This document shows positions 346 through 63,329 of a stretch of DNA of 64,000 nucleotides, in pieces. The stretch comes from Alphaproteobacteria bacterium. GTDB taxonomy: Bacteria; Pseudomonadota; Alphaproteobacteria; UBA828. The stretch spans positions 1 to 64,000 of the forward strand of contig CAXXVO010000020.1 in NCBI GenBank assembly GCA_963422645.2, read 5' to 3'. A program made the position numbers and the translations under genes. Numbering within the stretch: the stretch's first letter is position 1; each line of letters begins with the position of its first letter. Below the pieces are notes generated by a model. That model ran no database searches. It saw nothing but the letters and a program-made list of their open reading frames with translations, and was not told the origin of the DNA.

Positions 346-1595
346 TCAGAATTGACGTTCGGCCATTCGCTCAGCCTCGGCCCTCGGCATTTCGCCTTCG
401 AATTGGAGCATGGCCGCTCGCTCGTCGGCGTCAGCGACTATGTCGTCGAACGGATTTGGATGGTGGTTGTCGACGTTGTCGTGTGTGGCCGCGGGGTTTC
501 CATCCGTCACAGCGTCACAACCGGCGCGCACCGTAGGGTTTGGCCGATTCCCATCCGTCACAGTGTCTGGGCTTGTGACGGATGCGCAATCGTCGAGAAC
601 TGCGCTCAGCCTTGGTTGTGACGCTGTGACGGATGGCTTCCGGGGTTCTTCAGGGGCGGGGATGCCATAACGCTTCCATGTGGGTTCGAAGCTTTCGCGC
701 TTGTAGCCCTTGGCCGTCAGCTTGTGGTTCAGGCGAATTGTGCCCGGAGCGATGCCGAAACCCTTGAGAAGGCTTGCTAGGCCGCGCGCCGTTAGCGAAT
801 TGCCTCGCGAATACTCGGCCCACGGACGCCCCTCCATGGCGACCAGGGCCGGGAGAATCGCAGGCGAACACGGATCGTAGCGTTCATTGGACTTGCCAGT
901 CGGCAGTTGCGCGGGGTTCCCGGCTTCCTCGAACAGCTTACGTATGTCGGCAAGCAGCATTTCGCGAATGCCCGTCTCGGAATCGACTTCGGCGTTGACG
1001 GCCTCGCAGGCCCGGTATGCGCGGCCGGTTGTTCCCGCCCATTCGCCTCCGGCGACTTCACCAATGGCCAGGAGCGCCTCCCAGGCGTCGCGGGCTCGAT
1101 CGTGCAGTGCGGAAGGGAAGGCAATGCCGTTGCGGCGCTCCAAGACCGCATAGGCGCTATCGTCGGTCCACCGGGCGAGCTTCTGATTCAGAGCCTCGAC
1201 GGCTTGCCTGTCACGGTCACGCCAATGTGGCATGTCGCCAGTCGTTGGGGAGCGCCGTTCAAGCCGCACTGTGACCGCGCGATCTGCCACCGTGTCAGGC
1301 AAGTCTCCGATTCCGCTTATGGCCTTGGGACACCAGGTTCTGAAGAGACGCGGTTCGTGATCTTCGCCTACCGTGCGGATGACGAACGCCATCTCTCGTC
1401 TCTGAGAGCCGTTGACGATACCCCGCAGTTCAGGATCGTCGCTCATGAAGGTGTCAGCTTCGTCCAGAATCAGGGTGGGCTCGTGCAGTGCGATGATGCG
1501 GAACATTCCCGCCGGCGTAATCCGCCCGGACACTGTCAGCGATCGCAAGGCGAGCGTGCCGGCAACCTCCATGAGCAAACTCTTGCCGCAACGCT
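346..1595 (-). pseudogene. 3' part of Toprim + DUF3631 primase/helicase, split by IS110
   Basis: Walker B LILDEAD and C-terminal AKGYKRESF typical of DUF3631; joins 3364-4465 in frame (2352 nt total) when the IS110 is removed. Confidence 0.85.
500..636. repeat. Nested inverted iteron-like repeats (putative replication origin)
   Basis: Perfect 23-bp IR CCATCCGTCACAGCGTCACAACC (500-522 / 614-636) and inner 11-bp IR CATCCGTCACA (552-562 / 574-584). Confidence 0.7.
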
Positions 1596-1758
1596 TGCCG
1601 TGAAACAGATTCTGGCGAGGGACGCGCGGTGACGCTCCAACCCCGAGGTCACGGCGTTGGCTGAGACCGCCAGGGTCGGCGCGGCGGAGACGAGCGGTGG
1701 ACTTCCCCGATGTGGTCCGAAGCGGTCCCGCGTAGCCGGCTGACGAGATGCGGGCCGC

Positions 1759-3009
1759 TCAGGCGGCCTTGAGTTCCGCGCCTACGGGCTCGATGTAGCC
1801 GTAGCGGCGGAGCATGCGGATCCACCGAGGAGCGTTGCGCTTGACCATCAGAGCGTCGTAGTCGGCCGTGCGGTCGTAGTAGGGCCTGCCGGTCTTGAGC
1901 ACCACATAGATGATGCGCAGCATCTTGTGAGCGCCGGCGACGATGGCGCGCTTGTAGCCGCGCCGGGCGGCGAGGGCGCGGTGATGAGCCTCGAACTGGC
2001 ACCCCTTGGTTCGGGCCGCGCCGTGGGCACACTCGACGAGGCAGGCGCGCAGGGTCTTGGAGCCCATGCGGGTGCGTGCGTTGCGGCGCTTGCCCCCGCT
2101 CTCGTTGTTGCCGGGGCAGAGCCCGGCCCAGGCGGCGAAGTGCTCCTTGGAGGCGAACACGCCGATGTCGGGGCCGATCTCGATGAGGATGGTCGAGGCG
2201 GCGGTGCGGTCGATGCCGGGGATGGTGGTCAGCAGACGGAGCTGCTCCTCCCACGGTGTCATCTGCCCGTCGATCTTCCTGGTGTAGGACGCGATGCGCG
2301 CCTCAAGCGCGTCATGCTCCTCCAGCAGGTCGTTGAGCATGAAGCGGTCGTTGTCGCCCAGGCTCAGGGTGAGCGCCTCGCCGAGCCCCTCCAGCTTGTT
2401 CGCAACGTGGCTGGTGAGCGAGGCGAGGATGACCTCGCGCGCCGTCCCCTGCGCCAGGCCGTCGAGGATCTTCCGGCCGTTGACGCCGAAGACGTCGGAG
2501 AGGATGCCGCCGATGCGCGCACCGGCGCGGTCGATGATCTTCTGCACGCGGTTGCGCACGGCGGAGCGCTGCCTGACCAGGACGCGGCGCTGGCGGCTCA
2601 GTGCGCGCAGCTCCCGGAACGGCTCAGGCGGAACGTGGGAAGGCGTGCAGAGCCCGAACTGGCACACGCAGGCCAGCCACACGCTGTCCGCCACGTCGGT
2701 CTTGCGCCCCTTCAACTGCTTCACCTGACGCGCATGCACCAGGATCGCCTCGAGCCCGGCCGCCTCCAGGGCCGCGAAGGGCGCCTGCCAGTAGACCCCG
2801 GTCCCTTCCATCACCGCAGCCTCGACGCCGTGACCGGTCAGCCACGCGACCATCTCCTCCAGACCGCTCGGCAGCGTGCCGAAGCAGCGCGTCTCCACCA
2901 CCGGCTCACCCTCGCCCTCACAGAGGCGAACCGTCGCGGTGATCTCCATCTTGTGCACGTCCAGACCCGCCGCGCGCGGCCGGACGACGTGCAAGCCTTC
3001 CGTCTTCAT
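1759..3009 (-). CDS. IS110 DEDD recombinase
   Basis: GLDVHK / VMEGTG / KTDVAD (DEDD) and C-terminal GNNESGG serine motif; GAGGAGG RBS before ATG 3009. Confidence 0.95.
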   Translation of the reverse strand: MKTEGLHVVRPRAAGLDVHKMEITATVRLCEGEGEPVVETRCFGTLPSGLEEMVAWLTGHGVEAAVMEGTGVYWQAPFAALEAAGLEAILVHARQVKQLKGRKTDVADSVWLACVCQFGLCTPSHVPPEPFRELRALSRQRRVLVRQRSAVRNRVQKIIDRAGARIGGILSDVFGVNGRKILDGLAQGTAREVILASLTSHVANKLEGLGEALTLSLGDNDRFMLNDLLEEHDALEARIASYTRKIDGQMTPWEEQLRLLTTIPGIDRTAASTILIEIGPDIGVFASKEHFAAWAGLCPGNNESGGKRRNARTRMGSKTLRACLVECAHGAARTKGCQFEAHHRALAARRGYKRAIVAGAHKMLRIIYVVLKTGRPYYDRTADYDALMVKRNAPRWIRMLRRYGYIEPVGAELKAA

Positions 3010-3074
3010 CGCCTTCCTCCTCATTTGCGCTCTCGCCACGGCGGCGTACGATCACGCCGTGGCATCGCCACGGT

Positions 3075-3251
3075 GGAGGCGGGGACAGCGGTCGGAAGAA
3101 CACGCATCCGACGAGCGGGTGCGGTGCAATTTGCCGCGCGTCCACGGCCACGGGCCGGGTACAATACGGGGTGCGGAGCCGGCCGCCGGAAGCAGTTTTG
3201 TCATCGGGAACTACGTCACCGATATAACGACGCTCACACGTCCCCACCTCC
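3075..3251 (-). ncRNA. Putative IS110 bridge RNA, copy 1
   Basis: 12-bp closing stem GGAGGTGGGGAC/GTCCCCGCCTCC enclosing two internal loops that match target and donor junction sequences. Confidence 0.7.
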
Positions 3252-3363
3252 GCCAATACCCATCCTGACACGGCAAATGGGTGCAAGCGCAAGGAAAACG
3301 TCAGCCGAACCGCTCCTGTTTCATGCCACGGGGTGGCTCAGAACCGCGGGGACCATGACTGTT

Positions 3364-4465
3364 TTGTCGCACTCGTCACGTTAAGAATGGTCGACAGATC
3401 AAGCCGGCTGTGAAGGAAGGTATGGGCGATCCACAACGCCACGGCGACCGCCTTCTCGTCTGACATATCAACGTAGCGCCGGATCAGTCCGGCGATGTCC
3501 GTGAGCAACGCCTCACCGTCTACCGGTTCTGGCCACGGCTCGGGTTCGTTCCACTCGATGCGGCGCCCTTGAAGATGGTCACCTTCGCTGCCGCTGCGCT
3601 CGCTTCGTACAAGCTTGTCGAGGTGGGTGACGCGAACGCCCAAGCGCACGGCTTCGTCCGTGCGTGCCCGCTCGTATTCCAGCTCAGGCAGCGCCGCGAG
3701 CCGCGCAATCGCCTCTTCATCAGTCTCGGAGGCGTCGGCATTCATGGCTGTCGCGGCATCGGGTTCCCAAACTGTTGCTTCTGCCTCGATACGCTCGCGC
3801 GTCGCCTCAACGCCGTCCTCTTCGAGCGAGTCGGCGATGTCTCGCCCATCGTCGCCAGATGGCAGGTGGACGCGCACGGCGCATCCCATAGACGCTAGAC
3901 GTTCGGCGATGCAGCTCATTGCCTCGCGACCCGGTTCGTCGGCATCCGCCAACAGCAATACGTCGCGCCCGGCTAGCGGTTCCCAATCGGCCAACCTCCA
4001 CGCGCCCGAGCCGCCGGCCCAGGTAGTGGCGGAGTGGTCTGGGAACACGCGCGTCGCCGCGTCGACACACCGCTCGCTTTCGGCGACGACGACACTCTTG
4101 GTGGGTCCTTCGAGAACTGTTGGCAGGTTGAAGAGCGGCCTGGGCGCCGGCGTGGCCTTGAGCACCCATCTGGTGCCGATCCAGGTGGCCGGGCGTATGA
4201 CTTTGCGACCGTGCGGGTCCTCGTTCTCCCATCGGGCCACGTGGAAGGCGACTTCGCCGTCTGCTGTGAGGTAGGACCAAGTTCCCACCGGGTCGCCTTT
4301 GGCTTCGGTCGGACGCAACCGCGACCAATCCAATTCGGGCGCGTCGGCCGGTGCCGGGACGATCGGTTGAGGGCCTTCGCTCTTATCAGTGGGCGCAGTG
4401 CGCTCTGCCGCTTGGAGCTCGTCAACCGTGAACGGCTCGAACATGCCGTCGCTGGGGCCGGTCAT
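3364..4465 (-). pseudogene. 5' part of Toprim + DUF3631 primase/helicase, split by IS110
   Basis: Toprim motifs (RPLFNL, VVVAESE, LLLADADEPG); broken inside Walker A SAT|KRCGKS. Confidence 0.85.
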
Positions 4466-4869
4466 GCCTCCACCCCGAGCATGCGAGCCAGCGACCGTGC
4501 CGCTTCCGATTGAGAACAACCCCGCAGGTACGCCGCCAGCGAAATGGGGTCTCGACCGCGAGCGTCGGGGAGAGCAAAGTCAGACCAGAAACCGTTGACA
4601 AGGTTGATCTTGAACGAGCCTGGCCGGCGGTCCACTCGACGCGGATTGCGCGCCTCCCACTCGCGGCCTACACGCCGTCCGTCCGGCAGCCAGCGGGCGC
4701 AAAGCACAGGAAGGCGGGCCAGCGCCGCCGCGTTGATCGCGTCGAAGTCTACCGCGTTGCGACGACCGGCGGTGTGGGCTAGGGTTCCGGCGTGCTCTCG
4801 ACGATGCTGAGACACGCCGCGCCCGTTCCGGATGGCACCTCCGGGCGGGCGCTTCCATTTGCGGGACAT
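4462..4869 (-). CDS. Primase N-terminal-like small protein
   Basis: WLPDGRRVGREW..RNPRR.DRRPGSFKIN..G.WSDFA..GRDPISLAAYL; stop overlaps the primase ATG; start uncertain. Confidence 0.7.
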   Translation of the reverse strand: MSRKWKRPPGGAIRNGRGVSQHRREHAGTLAHTAGRRNAVDFDAINAAALARLPVLCARWLPDGRRVGREWEARNPRRVDRRPGSFKINLVNGFWSDFALPDARGRDPISLAAYLRGCSQSEAARSLARMLGVEA

Positions 4870-55451: not shown

Positions 55452-56986
55452 CGGTGTCGCACTGGCACGAAGACCTCGCCGCCCGTAACGAGGCCTTCTG
55501 CTGCCTGAAGGAGCTTCTCGAGCCATCATCCCTCGCAACCACTGTCGTCGTTGCCGTCCGGGAATGGGGGCAGGGGCTGCTGCGATCAGCCACCGCGCTC
55601 GCCCGGGAAAATGCCGCACTCGAGCAGGAGAACGCGGCCCTGCGCGAGCGCATCGCCGAACTCGAGCGCAGCGCGGCCCTCAACAGCACCACAAGCAGCA
55701 AGCCCCCCGCCAGCGACGGGCTCAAGAAGAAAAGCGGAGCCCAGAGGCGCACCCAAAGCCAGCGCGGAAAGTCCGGCGGGCCCAGTGGCGGCCAGCCCGG
55801 CCACAAGGGAACCACCCTCGCGCGGAGCGACAGCCCGGACCGTGTCGTCGATCACCACCCCTCCACCTGTTCCGGCTGTGGCGTCGAGCTCTCGGACGCC
55901 GACCGGCAAGGCGCGCCCGCCTGTCGGCAGGTCTTCGACGTACCCGAGCCGCAGCCTCTCGAGGTCACCGAACACCGCGCCCATCGCTGCCTCTGCGGCG
56001 CATGCGGCACGCTGACACGAGCCGCCTTCCCGCCGGGCGTCACCGCCCCGGTCCAGTACGGCCCTCGCATCACCGCTTGGGTGAGTTACCTGCTGTACGC
56101 CCAGTTCGTGCCCGAGAAGCGTCTGGCCGAACTCATGAGCGACATCTTCGCGGTGTCCATCTCCACTGCCACGATCGCCGCCATGGGCCGGCGCACAGCG
56201 CAGCGCTTCGAGGGCTTCCTCGACCATGTCGCCGATCTGATCCGCACGCAGGCGCCGGTCAAGCACCTCGACGAGACCGGCCTGCGTATCGCCGCCCGTA
56301 CCCGCTGGCTCCATGTGCTGTGCACCCCGTTGCTCACCGTCCTGCGCATCGGCGAGGGACGCGGCGATGTCGAAAAGAACCTGAAAGGCATCCTCGTCCA
56401 CGACGACTTCGCCCCCTACTTCACCATCAAGGGCGTCCGCCACGGCGCCTGCAACGCACATCACCTGCGCGAACTCCAGGCCCTGATCGACATCGAGAAG
56501 GAGGAGTGGGCGGCGAGCATGCACCGCCTGCTTCAGCGCGCGCGCAGGGCCGCCCGCTTCGCCCGTGAGAAAGACCGTCAAGTCCCCGCCTCCCTGGTGG
56601 CCCGCATCTCAAGGGCATGGGACCGTATCCTCGAAGAAGCCATCGCCTTCCATGAGGCCCAACCGCCGCTCCAGATCGCAAAGCGAGGGCGAAAGAAACG
56701 CCGCATCGGCCACAACCTCGCGCGCCGCCTTCAAAAGCATAAGGAGGGCTGCCTGCGCTTCCTCACCGACCTGCGCACGCCGTTCACGAATAACGAGGCG
56801 GAGCGTGACATCCGTATGAACAAAGTGCATGAGAAGATCTCAGGCGGCTTCCGCTCCCTGCAAGGCGCCTGCAACTTCGCCGGAATGCGCAGCGTCATCG
56901 TCACCGCTCGAAAGCAAGGCTGGAACATCCTGCAAATCCTGGCGCACCCGGAACCGATGCAGCTGATCCCTATACTGCGCTCCTGA
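55448..56986 (+). CDS. IS66 TnpC transposase, type B
   Basis: SSKPPASDG, HLDETG, CNAHHLREL, FTNNEAERDIR; GTG overlaps methylase TGA; right IR ends 57151, no left IR seen. Confidence 0.9.
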   Translation: MTVSHWHEDLAARNEAFCCLKELLEPSSLATTVVVAVREWGQGLLRSATALARENAALEQENAALRERIAELERSAALNSTTSSKPPASDGLKKKSGAQRRTQSQRGKSGGPSGGQPGHKGTTLARSDSPDRVVDHHPSTCSGCGVELSDADRQGAPACRQVFDVPEPQPLEVTEHRAHRCLCGACGTLTRAAFPPGVTAPVQYGPRITAWVSYLLYAQFVPEKRLAELMSDIFAVSISTATIAAMGRRTAQRFEGFLDHVADLIRTQAPVKHLDETGLRIAARTRWLHVLCTPLLTVLRIGEGRGDVEKNLKGILVHDDFAPYFTIKGVRHGACNAHHLRELQALIDIEKEEWAASMHRLLQRARRAARFAREKDRQVPASLVARISRAWDRILEEAIAFHEAQPPLQIAKRGRKKRRIGHNLARRLQKHKEGCLRFLTDLRTPFTNNEAERDIRMNKVHEKISGGFRSLQGACNFAGMRSVIVTARKQGWNILQILAHPEPMQLIPILRS

Positions 56987-57182: not shown

Positions 57183-59020
57183 GTTTCTCGTTCGGAGTTG
57201 GTGGAAAGGGCTTGACGGGAATTTCGGGAAATGACTCAACAACGACATGAGCAATCCCGAGTCGCCGCGCGGCCCTTCGACGGGAGCAGCGCCCGAAACG
57301 CCCGCGCAGAAGATCGCCCGCCTGGAGGAGGAGAACGCCCGGCTTCGGGAGGAAAATGCCTGGCTTCGGCAGCAGAACGCGCGGCTGGAAGAGCAAGTCG
57401 CGCGTCTCGTCGAGCGCATCGAGGAGTTGGAGCGCCGTCTCGGCCTCAACAGCGGCAACAGCGGCAAGCCGCCTTCGAGCGATGGGCTGAGGAAGCCGAA
57501 TTCGAAGCGGCGAACCCGAAGCCTGCGCGGCAAATCGGGCCGCAAGCCCGGTGGCCAGCCCGGCCACAAGGGCAAGACGCTGCGCCGCGCCGATCACCCG
57601 GGTCGGGTGAAGGATCACGTCCCGGCTTCCTGCAAGGGATGCGGTTCGCCGCTTTCGGACGCGGCCAGGGCGGGAACGCCCGTCGCCCGCCAGGTGTTCG
57701 ATCTGCCCGAGCCGAGCCCCCTGGAGGTGACCGAGCACCGGGCGCATGCCAAGTGCTGCGGGCATTGCGGGACGGTGACCCGGGCGGCGTTCCCCGACGG
57801 GGTGTCGGCGCCGGTGCAGTACGGCCCGCGCATTGCCGGGGTGGCGGTCTACCTTCAGCACGCTCACTTCCTGCCGGAGGATCGGCTGTCGCAGGTGATG
57901 GCCGAGCTCTTCGGCGCGCCGGTGACGGCTGCGACGTTGGCGACGATGAGCGAGAGGGCGGCCGAGCGGCTGCGGGACGCGGCCTTGCACATACAGGACC
58001 TGGCGGCGGGCACGGCGCGGGTGAAACACATGGACGAGACCGGCTTGCGGATCGGCGGTCAGACGCAGTGGCTTCATGTGATCTGCACGCCGCTGCTGGC
58101 GGCGTACCGGGTCAGCGGCAAGCGCGGCGCCCTGCTCTCGGGTGTCTCCGGCATCGTCGTGCACGATCACTGGAAGCCGTACTTCGCGATGGAAGGGGTG
58201 GAGCACGGCCTGTGCAACGCCCATCACCTGCGGGAGTTGCAGGCGCTGGTGGACATCGAAGGGGAGGCTTGGGCCCGGCGGATGCAGCAGCTCCTGCGCC
58301 GAGCCAATCACGCCGCCCGCATCGCGCTGGACAAGGATATCGCCGTTCCGGCGAGGCTTGTGGCGCTGATCGAGCGCCGATACGACGAGATCATCGCCGA
58401 TGCGCTGGCCTTTCACGAGAGCCAACCACCGTTCTCGCCGGGCAAGAGGAAGAAGCGCCGGAAGCGAAGGATCGGTCACAATCCGGCCTTGAGGCTGCGC
58501 GACCACAAATGCGCGGTGCTCCGGTTCCTGATCGACCTCGAGGTCGGGTTCACGAACAACGAGGCCGAGCGCGACCTTCGGATGATGAAGCTGCGCCAGA
58601 AGATCTCCGGGGGCTTCCGGTCCGCGCAGGGGGCCGAGAACTTCGCCATCCTGCGCAGCGTCATCACCACCGCCAGAAAGCAGGGCTGGAATATCATCGA
58701 AGCCCTGACCAGCCCATCGGATCGGCTCATCGCCACCGTCAAGTGCGCGTAAGCTCACCTGGCACGGGTTCTCCAACAGCGGAGCCATTCTCATAAACGA
58801 TCATGGTCGACGCCGTGCTGGACCACCCCATAGAATGAAAATCGGTGCCCGTCGCGCGGGCGGACTTCGGGCCACATCGGGGTAGCTTACCGGTCGCAGT
58901 CCGCAAGAGGGGCATCGTGAGCTGTGAAACCCGGCGACCCCAGAGGAGCACACGGGCGTCGCGTGGGTAGCGTTGTGCCGAATCCCAGAGAATTTTCACA
59001 GCAAGAACCTGGGCAGTTAC
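57183..59020 (+). mobile_element. IS66 type A, copy 2 (first 50 bp missing)
   Basis: Near-identical to reverse complement of 5212-7040. Confidence 0.92.
57247..58752 (+). CDS. IS66 TnpC transposase, type A
   Basis: As 5480-6976 with 3 extra codons (NSGNSG) and a few substitutions. Confidence 0.93.
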   Translation: MSNPESPRGPSTGAAPETPAQKIARLEEENARLREENAWLRQQNARLEEQVARLVERIEELERRLGLNSGNSGKPPSSDGLRKPNSKRRTRSLRGKSGRKPGGQPGHKGKTLRRADHPGRVKDHVPASCKGCGSPLSDAARAGTPVARQVFDLPEPSPLEVTEHRAHAKCCGHCGTVTRAAFPDGVSAPVQYGPRIAGVAVYLQHAHFLPEDRLSQVMAELFGAPVTAATLATMSERAAERLRDAALHIQDLAAGTARVKHMDETGLRIGGQTQWLHVICTPLLAAYRVSGKRGALLSGVSGIVVHDHWKPYFAMEGVEHGLCNAHHLRELQALVDIEGEAWARRMQQLLRRANHAARIALDKDIAVPARLVALIERRYDEIIADALAFHESQPPFSPGKRKKRRKRRIGHNPALRLRDHKCAVLRFLIDLEVGFTNNEAERDLRMMKLRQKISGGFRSAQGAENFAILRSVITTARKQGWNIIEALTSPSDRLIATVKCA

Positions 59021-59134
59021 GAAACAGTCATGGTCCCCGCGGTTCTGAGCCACCCCGTGGCATGAAACAGGAGCGGTTCGGCTGACGTTTTCCTTGCGCT
59101 TGCACCCATTTGCCGTGTCAGGATGGGTATTGGC

Positions 59135-59311
59135 GGAGGTGGGGACGTGTGAGCGTCGTTATATCGGTGACGTAGTTCCCGATGACAAAACTGCTTCCGG
59201 CGGCCGGCTCCGCACCCCGTATTGTACCCGGCCCGTGGCCGTGGACGCGCGGCAAATTGCACCGCACCCGCTCGTCGGATGCGTGTTCTTCCGACCGCTG
59301 TCCCCGCCTCC
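59135..59311 (+). ncRNA. Putative IS110 bridge RNA, copy 2
   Basis: Closing stem 59135-59146 / 59300-59311; target loop about 59151-59196; donor loop about 59215-59262. Confidence 0.7.
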
Positions 59312-59376
59312 ACCGTGGCGATGCCACGGCGTGATCGTACGCCGCCGTGGCGAGAGCGCAAATGAGGAGGAAGGCG

Positions 59377-60627
59377 ATGAAGACGGAAGGCTTGCACGTC
59401 GTCCGGCCGCGCGCGGCGGGTCTGGACGTGCACAAGATGGAGATCACCGCGACGGTTCGCCTCTGTGAGGGCGAGGGTGAGCCGGTGGTGGAGACGCGCT
59501 GCTTCGGCACGCTGCCGAGCGGTCTGGAGGAGATGGTCGCGTGGCTGACCGGTCACGGCGTCGAGGCTGCGGTGATGGAAGGGACCGGGGTCTACTGGCA
59601 GGCGCCCTTCGCGGCCCTGGAGGCGGCCGGGCTCGAGGCGATCCTGGTGCATGCGCGTCAGGTGAAGCAGTTGAAGGGGCGCAAGACCGACGTGGCGGAC
59701 AGCGTGTGGCTGGCCTGCGTGTGCCAGTTCGGGCTCTGCACGCCTTCCCACGTTCCGCCTGAGCCGTTCCGGGAGCTGCGCGCACTGAGCCGCCAGCGCC
59801 GCGTCCTGGTCAGGCAGCGCTCCGCCGTGCGCAACCGCGTGCAGAAGATCATCGACCGCGCCGGTGCGCGCATCGGCGGCATCCTCTCCGACGTCTTCGG
59901 CGTCAACGGCCGGAAGATCCTCGACGGCCTGGCGCAGGGGACGGCGCGCGAGGTCATCCTCGCCTCGCTCACCAGCCACGTTGCGAACAAGCTGGAGGGG
60001 CTCGGCGAGGCGCTCACCCTGAGCCTGGGCGACAACGACCGCTTCATGCTCAACGACCTGCTGGAGGAGCATGACGCGCTTGAGGCGCGCATCGCGTCCT
60101 ACACCAGGAAGATCGACGGGCAGATGACACCGTGGGAGGAGCAGCTCCGTCTGCTGACCACCATCCCCGGCATCGACCGCACCGCCGCCTCGACCATCCT
60201 CATCGAGATCGGCCCCGACATCGGCGTGTTCGCCTCCAAGGAGCACTTCGCCGCCTGGGCCGGGCTCTGCCCCGGCAACAACGAGAGCGGGGGCAAGCGC
60301 CGCAACGCACGCACCCGCATGGGCTCCAAGACCCTGCGCGCCTGCCTCGTCGAGTGTGCCCACGGCGCGGCCCGAACCAAGGGGTGCCAGTTCGAGGCTC
60401 ATCACCGCGCCCTCGCCGCCCGGCGCGGCTACAAGCGCGCCATCGTCGCCGGCGCTCACAAGATGCTGCGCATCATCTATGTGGTGCTCAAGACCGGCAG
60501 GCCCTACTACGACCGCACGGCCGACTACGACGCTCTGATGGTCAAGCGCAACGCTCCTCGGTGGATCCGCATGCTCCGCCGCTACGGCTACATCGAGCCC
60601 GTAGGCGCGGAACTCAAGGCCGCCTGA
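59377..60627 (+). CDS. IS110 DEDD recombinase
   Basis: Same protein as 1759-3009. Confidence 0.95.
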   Translation: MKTEGLHVVRPRAAGLDVHKMEITATVRLCEGEGEPVVETRCFGTLPSGLEEMVAWLTGHGVEAAVMEGTGVYWQAPFAALEAAGLEAILVHARQVKQLKGRKTDVADSVWLACVCQFGLCTPSHVPPEPFRELRALSRQRRVLVRQRSAVRNRVQKIIDRAGARIGGILSDVFGVNGRKILDGLAQGTAREVILASLTSHVANKLEGLGEALTLSLGDNDRFMLNDLLEEHDALEARIASYTRKIDGQMTPWEEQLRLLTTIPGIDRTAASTILIEIGPDIGVFASKEHFAAWAGLCPGNNESGGKRRNARTRMGSKTLRACLVECAHGAARTKGCQFEAHHRALAARRGYKRAIVAGAHKMLRIIYVVLKTGRPYYDRTADYDALMVKRNAPRWIRMLRRYGYIEPVGAELKAA

Positions 60628-60814
60628 GCGGCCCGCATCTCGTCAGCCGGCTACGCGGGACCGCTTCGGACCACATCGGGGAAGTCCACCGCTCGTCTCC
60701 GCCGCGCCGACCCTGGCGGTCTCAGCCAACGCCGTGACCTCGGGGTTGGAGCGTCACCGCGCGTCCCTCGCCAGAATCTGTTTCACGGCAAATCCTCCCA
60801 TTTGCGCATAGTTT

Positions 60815-63329
60815 CAGACTTCCTGACCTCGTGATGCTGGCTGTTCTGGGCAGCGTGCCGGGAACTCCTTGAATTCTGATACATTTCGGTTGTTTCAGGC
60901 GGTTTTTCGCTGGGTGTCGCGCCCGAGGTCTGATATTATAATTTGATACCAATTGCACGGGGTCTCAACCATGCCCAGTACCCTCCCAATGTGCCCTCCA
61001 GAGGCGGTCTCGATCGGCAACAGCTGCTTCGCCGTCCTGATCTCGGACGACACCTTCACCTACTTTTCCAACCTCATTCCCTTTGACAGCCACGCCGCCG
61101 ATGACCGCACGGCCATGCTCTTGCGGATCGGCCGCCTCGCGGCGATCAGCGCGGTCTCGCCGCAGGAACTGGCTGACGCTTTCGCTGTCTCGCGCGCGAC
61201 GGTGCAGCGCGCACGACGGCGCTACCTGGCCGAGGGCGAAGCGGGGTTCATGAAGCCCCGGCGCGGTCGCGGGCCGTCGGTGTTCACTCCGGAGTTGGCG
61301 GAGAAGGCGACGGCGTTGCTGGCATCGGGCCTGAGCGGCTCTGCGGCGGCCCGGGTTCTCGGCGTGTCAGCGCCATCGGTCAACAAGTGGCGCCGTCAGG
61401 GACTGATCGGCAACACGGAGGCGGATGGGGAGCCCGGACGCTCAGCGCTGGCTGCGCCGCCTGACGCGGGTGCGGCTCCTGAAGGCCGTGTCGATGAAGA
61501 GAGTACCGGTGCCCCGGGGCCGGAGACGGCGCCGGGGCTGGAAGCGCAGCCGCAAACGGATCGCAGCGCGCGCGATCGGCGGGACCGGCAGGCGCCGATG
61601 GGGCGTGCGACTTGCGATGTTCCGGCTCGGGTTCTGGCCAGTTGTGGACAGGCGGGGCCGGTCGAACCGCAGTTCGCCGCCGCCGCCCGCGGTGTCCGCT
61701 TCGGCGGCGTGCTCGCCGCCCTGCCGGCCCTGCTGAAGGAAGGTCTTCTCTCCGAGACCGGTCTCCTGCCATTGCTGCCGAAGGGCTATTACGGCTTGCC
61801 TACGATCCTGCTCTTCCTGGCCTTCATGACCTTGGCGCGGGTGCGCAACCCCGAGAGCCTGCGCTACCAGGCGCCGGGCGAATGGGGCGCCATTCTCGGC
61901 CTCGATCGCTGCCCCGAGGTCAAGACGCTGCGCCGCAAGATCGCTCTCATCGCCGACGACGAGGCCGGCGTGCGGGCGTGGCAGCTCGCCCTTGCCAGGC
62001 GCTGGCAGGCGCCGACGAGCCGGAGCTCTGGGCGACGCTGGCCATCGACGGGCACGTCAAGGTCTACTCCGGCCGCAAGGGGCGCTTGCCCAAGCACTTC
62101 GTCTCGCGCGAGAAGCTGTGCCTGCCGGCGAGCGCCAGCTACTGGATCAACGCTCTGGGCGGCAAGCCGCTGCTCTGTCTGCACAAGCCGCTGGACCCGA
62201 AGATGGTCGCGGCCATCGAAGCCGACGTGGTGCCGGCGCTGCAGGAGCTTGGGATCGTTGGCGCCGGGGCGCCGGACCTGACCGCCGAGCATCCCGGCCA
62301 GCCGGCGCTCACCCTGGTCTTCGACCGCGAGGGCTGGAGCCCGGATCTGTTCCGCCGGCTGGCGAGGCGCGGCGTCGCCTGCCTGACCTGGCACAAGAAC
62401 TTCAGGGGCGAGGACTGGCCGGCCGAGGACTTCGGCGCGATGACCGTTCCCATTCACGGACCGGCGGCGGACGGCAGCGCCACCATGCGGCTGGCTGAGA
62501 AGCCGGTGACGTTGCCGAACGGCTTCAGGGTGCGCCAGATCCGCCGCCTGCTCGACAACGGCCGTCAGGTGCCGCTGATCACCACCGATCCGCACAAGCC
62601 GATGGCTGAGGTTGCGGGCGCCATGTTCTCGCGCTGGTCGCAGGAGAACTTCTTCAAGTACATGCGTGACGAGTTCAATCTCGACGCCCTGCCGACCCAC
62701 GAGCTCGAGCCTCTCGATCCCGCCGCCATGGTCGTCAACCCGCTGCGGCGGGCCTATGACAAGGCAATCCATCGCCTCGACCGCCAGCTTGGCCGCCTGC
62801 GCAACCGCATCGCCGACACGGCCCGGAAGAAGCAGCCGACGGCGGAACTCAGGAGGGAAGTCAGGGACCTCCAGGATGTCCGCGACATCGTCAGGGCCAG
62901 CCGCAGGGAGACGCCCAAGCACTGCCGGGCCGGCGACCTCGACGAAGCCGAGCAGCTCGATGCCTTGCCCGCGCGCGAGCGCCTCCTCCTCGACGTCATC
63001 CGGATGATCGCCTACCGCGCCGAAACCCGCATGATGCTTCCCGTCATGCAGGCGCAGGGCCACAAGCCCCATCCCCGGAAACTGCTTCAAGCGCTGCTCA
63101 CCGCCGATGCCGACATCCTGCCGGATCCTGGCAATGGCCTCCTGCGGGTCCACATTCTTGGCCTCGCAAACGACGCCTGCGACCGTTGGATCGATGCGGT
63201 TCTGAGCGACCTGAACGCCACCGAAACGGTCTTCCCCGGCACCCGTCTGCGCATAGTCTACGACATCGACGGGGCCTCGGAATCCGCGCGGCTCGTGTCA
63301 CCTAAAATCAGCAGAGGTCAGGAAGTCTG
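60815..63329 (+). mobile_element. CAG element, copy 3
   Basis: 16-bp IRs and perfect 5-bp TSD AGTTT. Confidence 0.92.

Follow-up and report, generated by a model that had tools for sequence, protein, structure and literature searches.

A predicted bridge RNA with IS1111-type guide order in the upstream end of a multicopy IS110-family insertion sequence

The window studied here is the whole stretch of 64,000 nucleotides that was analysed (positions 1 to 64,000 of contig CAXXVO010000020.1, assembly GCA_963422645.2, Alphaproteobacteria bacterium). It contains two copies of an insertion sequence (IS) of the IS110 family, in which a recombinase gene is flanked by non-coding ends of 355 nt (left) and 164 nt (right). 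Copy a is on the plus strand at 59022-60791. Its 1770 bp include the A's that it has in common with its flanks, and its unique body spans 59025-60789. Copy b is on the minus strand at 1595-3364. Pairwise comparison of the two copies shows identity over 1770/1770 bp. The genome (5.9 Mb, 23 contigs) contains 48 copies of the element. Of these, 46 are full-length matches (1770 bp, 100% identity); of the remaining two, one has an aligned length of 1769 bp and the other an identity of 98%. We propose, with a probability of about 0.85, that this IS is active and that its left non-coding end carries, on the strand of the gene, the sequence of a bridge (seek) RNA of ca 180 nt. A first-pass annotation of the window had predicted such a bridge-type guide RNA, with one region reading the target and one reading the donor, and the comparison of related elements argues for it. 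All the strings quoted in that annotation are present where it placed them.

The recombinase gene (59377-60627, plus strand) encodes 416 amino acids (aa) from an ATG located behind a GAGGAGGA box, or 426 aa from a GTG at 59347. The start codon is aligned in all homologs. The single protein contains a DEDD_Tnp_IS110 domain (PF01548, E 1.9e-23) and a Transposase_20 domain (PF02371, E 4.6e-21). The G-x-x-P-x-x-x-x-S-G motif (GLCPGNNESG), as described in PMC11187229, is nearly invariant in 10 relatives. IS621 is distantly related (E 6e-16; 416 aa vs 326-328 aa). A protein search identified 6986 relatives at E <= 1e-20, none of which carried an IS name. In the PDB, a search for a named relative returned only IS621 and ISCro4, and plasmid annotations say just "IS110 family". 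Among plasmid proteins, full-length alignment was obtained with a 446-aa transposase whose gene has a long upstream gap; a 340-aa transposase with a long downstream gap matches just residues 225-388 of the recombinase, at the C-terminus. The element of the 446-aa protein, from an enterobacterial plasmid, was considered as a benchmark and set aside: its ends are not mappable because it is single-copy in its record and the 25 best matches listed share one context. The clade is made of recombinases of 415-450 aa and is spread over metagenome-assembled genomes (MAGs) of Alphaproteobacteria, Gammaproteobacteria, Binatia and Vicinamibacterales.

The predicted bridge RNA extends from 59134 to 59312 on the plus strand in copy a, and from 3074 to 3252 on the minus strand in copy b. 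Related loci were collected from genomes (57) and metagenomes (15), and 35 distinct versions of the region, from elements with proteins 37-97% identical to the present one, were aligned. Three truncated loci, L046, L096 and L086, were excluded from this RNA alignment (A2). RNAalifold together with pair counts gave six helices (P1, P2, H1, P3, H3 and H4). Stem P1 (59134-42 / 59304-12) bounds the RNA. It corresponds to the closing stem already seen in the single sequence, and it is kept in the homologs with compensatory change in 6/9 pairs. The target-binding loop (59151-59196) is predicted to consist of stem P2 (59151-55 / 59192-96) around hairpin H1 (59165-81). This loop had been drawn as an internal loop and is indeed one, closed by P2, of which pairs 39:94 and 40:93 have changed on both sides in 12 and 19 of the 35 sequences, respectively. 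The donor region (59198-59300) is closed by stem P3 (59198-207 / 59291-300) around a predicted three-way junction with H3 (59223-47) and H4 (59264-82); compensatory changes occur in 6/9 pairs of P3 and 4/6 pairs of H4. It had been taken for a second simple internal loop. The comparison does not bear out this shape; it supports the idea of a donor-reading region.

Over the whole fold, standard pairs occupy 95.8% of 1490 cells, vs 36-49% when the partners are slid by 1-3 columns. Both sides have changed in 20/43 pairs, and the covariation score is reached by 0/500 shuffles. G-U cells are more frequent than A-C cells (153 vs 31). Thus, the fold favours the gene strand over its complement. Just 5' of P1, at 59121-59133 (alignment A2 columns 8-17), most of the relatives at 57-68% have GAGAAT or CACAAT and close relatives have GGTATT or GGGAAT; the stretch resembles a -10 box without a -35.

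Pairing of the 48 left and 48 right ends of the element gave 37 places, corresponding to 33 distinct sites. The seven bases before the IS body are G in 17/33 sites, A in 29/33, C in 33/33 and A in 32/33, followed by three positions that are A in 33/33. A target consensus over all genomic copies was a check set beforehand, and the one found at the 33 sites is (G)ACAAAA. The right flank starts with A (33/33) and A (32/33); the third base is A in 24 sites and G in 8, and beyond these three positions the right flanks of the 33 sites gave no consensus. The left flank of copy a, ACGAAA, has the one G at that position among the 33 sites, in agreement with the earlier remark that this copy fits just one of its guides.

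Four empty paralogous sites are present in the same genome: GCGAC-AAAA-CGCTAG, CTCAC-AAAA-TCCCGG, GGAAC-AAAA-CGCTTC and TGAAC-AAA-GTGCAT. They show that the motif (G)ACAAAA belongs to the target. They carry A4 or A3 and their occupied versions 4+3 or 4+2 A's (junction sums 7 or 6); the element, as donor, therefore always adds three A's. Donor and target have a short core in common, and the four sites have no target duplication beyond this core. The left junction (59022-59029, plus strand) is made of the A run, which contains the AA core, and of the right-donor half ACAGTC. The right end (60784-60791, plus strand) is made of the left-donor half CACGGC followed by AA. A circle junction CACGGC-AAA-CAGTC, with a two-base AA exchange inside the A run, would fit these data; the exact position of the AA register in the run is beyond what sequence can show. 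The AA/TT core, with AA on the gene strand, and the junction CACGGCAAACAGTC of the first-pass annotation fit the four empty sites and 6/11 of the tandem junctions described below. ACAAAA is found 417 times in the genome, with 32 sites adjoining the element, and ACAAAG 570 times, with 8 sites occupied. The motif is therefore needed yet far from saturated.

The sequence GACAAAA occurs once in the element, at 59184-59190 (plus strand) in the 3' segment of the target loop, and is identical to the left-flank consensus of the 33 sites. As it reads like the top strand of the left flank, it is predicted to pair with the bottom strand. Its role as a guide, already proposed, is supported by the behaviour of the homologs. 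In the guide tests, flanks were set without the guides, from two landmarks of the element: CATGG at its first occurrence in the left end, and TTTCA-N-GCAA in the right end. For the left target, 40 distinct guide/flank pairs were examined, representing 54/63 loci and 22 guides (L086 and L056 were omitted by hand, the others had no left window or no guide). In each pair, the hexamer preceding the constant AAA of the 3' segment was set against the hexamer preceding the AAA of the left junction. We counted 151/240 identities vs 66.0 +/- 9.6 in permuted pairs, and 0/20,000 permutations reached the observed value. Positions -1, -2, -3 and -4 agree in 39, 38, 35 and 24 of the 40 pairs, whereas -5 and -6 are at chance level. 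An unbiased column-by-position scan found the same left-target columns (mutual information 1.58 and 1.33, identity 0.96). Two genomes contain two variants each, with differing guides and correspondingly differing flanks. In one genome, the guide and flank are ACACCAAA and TCACCAAA at locus L048, and AACGCAAA and GACGCAAA at L050; within another, L079 has AACCAAA and L082 has AAACAAA. These loci would represent natural reprogramming.

The donor region contains a predicted left-donor guide, CGGCAAA (59250-59256, plus strand), which reproduces, in the same sense, the right end of the element followed by the A run. The first-pass annotation had singled out this string, and it tracks the right end. 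Where the right end is CACGGC or CACAGC, the loop has CGGC or CAGC accordingly, in 26/26 sequences and 10/10 distinct pairs, the variation being limited to a single position. One position further out, the G of the guide is opposite a top-strand A or G. On the bottom strand this would be a wobble (rG:dT) in the first case and a Watson-Crick pair in the second. Since the wobble works solely for a sense RNA on the bottom strand, it was counted in favour of the left-donor guide. For the other donor half, the guide previously proposed was ATTGT (59221-59225, plus strand). Its last three bases are inside the predicted stem H3, its pairing with the left end is restricted to this element, and covariation in a fixed register is at the level of chance in the homologs (33/96 vs 33.4 expected). 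Another candidate donor guide, TTTGCCGTG (59109-17), a 9-nt reverse complement of the right end, was rejected as it is not kept in homologs.

The 5' segment of the target loop, UCGUUAUAU (59156-59164, plus strand), is hypervariable in homologs. It contains a candidate right-target guide, CGUUAU, that may pair with the top strand, in a register where the 3' base of the segment pairs with the last A of the run. In 44 loci (L034, L048 and L050 failed the hairpin anchor), 125/222 Watson-Crick pairs were counted vs 83.4 +/- 12.1, with 0/5000 permutations reaching this number. By lineage, the signal amounts to 6/6 pairs in the set labelled P1 group and in L091/L093, and to 5/6 in L062/L066 and L039. 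The present element itself appears hardly to use CGUUAU, for which support is weak.

Several points count against the bridge RNA proposal or against parts of it. The homologs share kinship, and cell counts therefore overstate the number of independent events. The single-sequence thermodynamic fold has an unremarkable stability (z = -1.33), so that the evidence for the structure is comparative. A Rfam scan of 58900-60900 gave six chance-level matches, none at gathering score. A promoter scan, limited to the E. coli type, found no sigma-70-type promoter in the left end or at a tandem junction. For the right-donor half, when all columns were scanned without bias, none proved consistently identical or complementary to it. 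As for the right-target half, a small number of lineages, with targets that are themselves repeats, account for the permutation result. The full target predicted by CGUUAU is absent from the genome, and the three sites with one mismatch are all unoccupied. Pairing with CGUUAU is just slightly better at occupied than at free sites (3.67 vs 3.16 of 6; p = 0.010 with wobbles, 0.07 without), and the base after ACAAAA shows no significant difference between 15 occupied and 310 free sites. Overall, the fold and covariation check of homologous ends, suggested at the outset, came out in favour of the fold, of the left-target guide and, at its one variable position, of the left-donor guide, partly in favour of the right-target guide, and against the right-donor guide previously proposed. 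The target consensus, the empty sites and the conserved fold support a bridge-type guide RNA, together with two guides that covary and a third that is supported in part of the family.

The orientation of the guides needs to be discussed, as the first-pass annotation had favoured an IS621-type layout turned around, in which the 5' segments of the two loops (GCGTCGTT and ATTGT) act as the long guides and read the flank distal to the gene, on the strand opposite to the gene. An alignment of the right flank of copy b to GCGTCGTT is possible if one mismatch and two wobbles are allowed, and ATTGT is complementary to the ACAGT of the left end apart from one wobble. Such guides predict a long conserved match on the gene-distal flank, and none is present in the 33 sites, where the right flanks have no consensus beyond the A run. 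Moreover, the first three letters of GCGTCGTT (59153-55) are in stem P2, which shows compensatory changes, and the string fails the comparative tests. The fit of GCGTCGTT to the target of copy b is therefore not above chance. Within the 5' segment it is CGUUAU that varies, and the positions of the ATTGT type do not covary with the left end. Finally, the guides that are long, contain the core and covary are the 3' segments: those reading the left halves lie 3' of H1 and H3, in an order that is reversed with respect to IS621. We therefore give the turned-around layout a very slim chance. Placing GACAAAA and CGGCAAA as 5' loop sides around downstream hairpins would restore the IS621 order; this assignment was rejected because the compensatory changes of P2 and P3 place the guides 3' of H1 and H3.

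Two other explanations question the RNA itself rather than its layout. The conserved fold could be a cis-regulatory leader acting on translation or stability of the recombinase mRNA, the matches with the flanks being incidental. The fold does lie directly upstream of the start codon and on the same strand, and neither a separate promoter, in the scan for the E. coli type, nor a terminator was found. However, a leader gives no reason why loop bases should change with DNA located outside the element, or with the far end of the element, and this makes the explanation scarcely credible. Alternatively, the element end could fold as single-stranded DNA, in the manner of IS200/IS605-type transposition, with the guides acting in this form and not as RNA. 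RNA and DNA are indistinguishable by sequence comparison alone, and recent preprints report single-strand intermediates for IS110 elements. Against this, relatives with this type of recombinase were shown to use an RNA, which co-purifies with the protein (Durrant 2024, PMC11208160; Siddiquee 2024, PMC11187229), and the many G-U pairs (153 cells) suit RNA helices. We consider guidance by single-stranded DNA to be very improbable, and retain a guide RNA encoded by the left end as the preferred explanation.

In this RNA, the predicted guide order is a match to the top strand on the 5' side and a match to the bottom strand on the 3' side. This order would be the reverse of that of IS621 and ISEc21, and the same as that of IS1111-type seekRNAs. 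IS621, as presented by Durrant 2024 (PMC11208160), combines a DEDD and Tnp20 recombinase with an RNA whose coding sequence precedes the gene, in the left end. The present element resembles it by the upstream position of the RNA, by the presence of one target-reading and one donor-reading region, and by the DEDD and Tnp20 protein; in both systems each DNA would be read on both strands around a common two-base core, with a variable target loop and a conserved donor loop (PMC11208160). Unlike the IS621 of that account (PMC11208160), the loops carry their guides in reversed order, the donor region is a predicted three-way junction instead of an internal loop, and the core is AA inside an A run instead of CT. 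Also unlike IS621, in which a sigma-70 promoter is rebuilt across the circle junction, neither an E. coli-type junction promoter nor a right-donor guide was found here. The system is thus best described as a variant of the known bridge RNA kind, and the label "IS621-type layout" is unsupported.

The seekRNA of ISEc21 (Siddiquee 2024, PMC11187229) is likewise derived from an upstream non-coding region with short matches to both target strands. There, the bottom-strand match is reported 5' of the top-strand match, as in IS621 and opposite to the order predicted here. The IS1111-type seekRNAs described in the same paper (ISEc11, ISPa11 and ISKpn4; PMC11187229) have the complement of the top strand 5' of the bottom-strand match, like the present element. 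The latter also has subterminal inverted repeats, as IS1111-type elements do (6-8 bp here vs 7-17 bp; PMC11187229), and its donor-binding bases are in a multi-loop, as reported for many IS1111 members (PMC11208160). In contrast, the non-coding region of IS1111 elements that encodes the RNA is downstream of the gene (PMC11187229), whereas the RNA is upstream here. The same source gives transposase sizes of 395-455 aa for the IS110 subgroup and 330-350 aa for IS1111, and the 416-aa protein falls in the IS110 subgroup class, unlike IS1111-type proteins (PMC11187229). Rare members with the non-coding region on the unusual side are mentioned in PMC11187229, in passages that do not state their guide order. 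In the literature compared here, we found no statement of an upstream-encoded RNA with reversed order; thousands of bridge RNA variants are already catalogued, and the layout may therefore be recorded in these large catalogues. In a cultured strain, a locus of a plasmid from Alicyclobacillus fastidiosus (L106:640-790, 45% protein identity) seems to follow the same side rule with another core. What is presumed to be its left flank, ...CACATAAG|AC..., is found again as ...GTACATAAGAC... in the upstream region, immediately 3' of a hairpin, and the gene looks rearranged downstream.

Six of the 37 places are head-to-tail arrays, of 2, 2, 2, 3, 3 and 5 copies. Arrays of complete copies outside the window are exemplified by L008-L010 (C16:27177-32482), L017-L021 (C11:48113-56956) and L023-L025 (C10). 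One locus is empty twice and holds 1, 2 and 3 copies on three contigs. Of the 11 IS-IS junctions, six have three A's, as in the inferred circle junction, and five have four A's, that is one A beyond conservative exchange according to the arithmetic of the empty sites. Register slip in the A run or homopolymer error are possible origins of this additional A. After insertion, the left junction reads xACAAAA and keeps a full match to the left-target guide. At the 24/33 sites counted as having a right flank starting with A, the right junction reads CGGCAAA and is still matched over its whole length by the left-donor guide. Renewed recombination of a circle with one or the other junction could therefore occur, and would yield a head-to-tail array with a three-A junction. 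Half-match recombination, as described for IS621, agrees with this possibility. Tandem duplication of whole IS110 modules is also reported in a preprint (bioRxiv 10.64898/2026.08.14.744561), in which insertion is said not to regenerate the target. Our element is similar to these modules in forming head-to-tail arrays of complete elements. It differs from the preprint's description in that the left junction keeps the full 7-nt left-target match, and in that the right junction keeps the left-donor match where the right flank starts with A. In a related MAG, the copy L051 has the right end CTGTTTCACGGCAA directly followed by a second ACTGTTTCACGGCA, that is, a duplicated fragment of the right end.

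A subterminal inverted repeat is located 42 nt inside the left end (TGAAACAG, 59063-59070, plus strand) and 6 nt inside the right end (CTGTTTCA, 60778-60785, plus strand). Its length is 8 bp in this element and, in relatives, 6-8 bp. The first base that varies agrees in 16/16 relatives; over six bases, agreement is 38/102 vs 26.6 +/- 4.5, a value reached by 35/5000 permutations. This repeat could be a protein site or form a stem across the circle junction.

From these elements, the following mechanism may be proposed. The RNA, produced from the left end and bound by the recombinase, would be closed by P1 and expose two DNA-reading regions, the target loop and the donor region. The 3' segment of the target loop would read the left flank, with just 3-4 nucleotides varying before a family-wide AAA. 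The 5' CGUUAU would be able to pair with the top strand, over a stretch that begins at the last A of the run and extends into the right target half; some relatives would make use of this pairing, and the present element hardly at all. The donor region would be a three-way junction closed by P3 and bearing the left-donor guide CGGCAAA. Within the A run, strand exchange at the core would then link the circle junction CACGGC-AAA-CAGTC to a target of the form xACA-AA-(A/G) and give the observed junctions.

A more far-reaching version of this mechanism is put forward tentatively, at odds that we place clearly below even. The clade of this element may represent a third layout, combining an upstream RNA with the IS1111-type order, in which only the left target and left donor halves are firmly read by RNA (3-4 free bases and the fixed A run), while the right donor half is read by the protein or by the subterminal repeat. 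Since a complete half-site survives at each junction after insertion, the element would recombine again with its own junctions and build the head-to-tail arrays. If true, this third layout would provide a built-in route to copy-number bursts.

Copy b splits a gene (346-1578 / 3338-4519, minus strand) whose N-terminal part matches Toprim_3 just under the cut-off and whose C-terminal part matches DUF3631. When the empty site is restored by eye, the stretch that received the insertion encodes A-T-K-R-C-G-K-S, which resembles a P-loop. Copy a lies a few bases past the end of an IS66-family element (57247-58752, plus strand; PF03050, E 8.9e-39), with the flank at 58994-59021. Another copy (C8:774879) adjoins the same IS66-type end in the opposite orientation. 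The genome is rich in repeats: a 25-nt string around TGAACAAAGTGC is found 66 times and another one around GGAACAAAACGC 23 times. In the window, repeats of this sort are located near 56810. A REP-like family (...GCCGTGAGCGACAAAG...AGAGCGTTTCCG) has ca 40 members, three of which are occupied by the element.

To our knowledge, bridge or seek RNAs are the only guides that program a recombinase for both of its DNA partners. The strand read by each side of a loop has so far been linked with the divide between the IS110 and IS1111 types. An RNA that lies upstream but has the guide order of IS1111, and whose donor region is of the junction type, would uncouple the guide order from the place of the RNA gene. 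Such uncoupling would be useful for tracing the divergence of IS110 and IS1111 and for the choice of scaffolds. With 33 sites in one genome and empty paralogs, the element is a natural experiment. Within one half-site, ca 6-7 bases seem to carry its specificity; this is in line with the half-match recombination reported for IS621 and suggests why arrays form.

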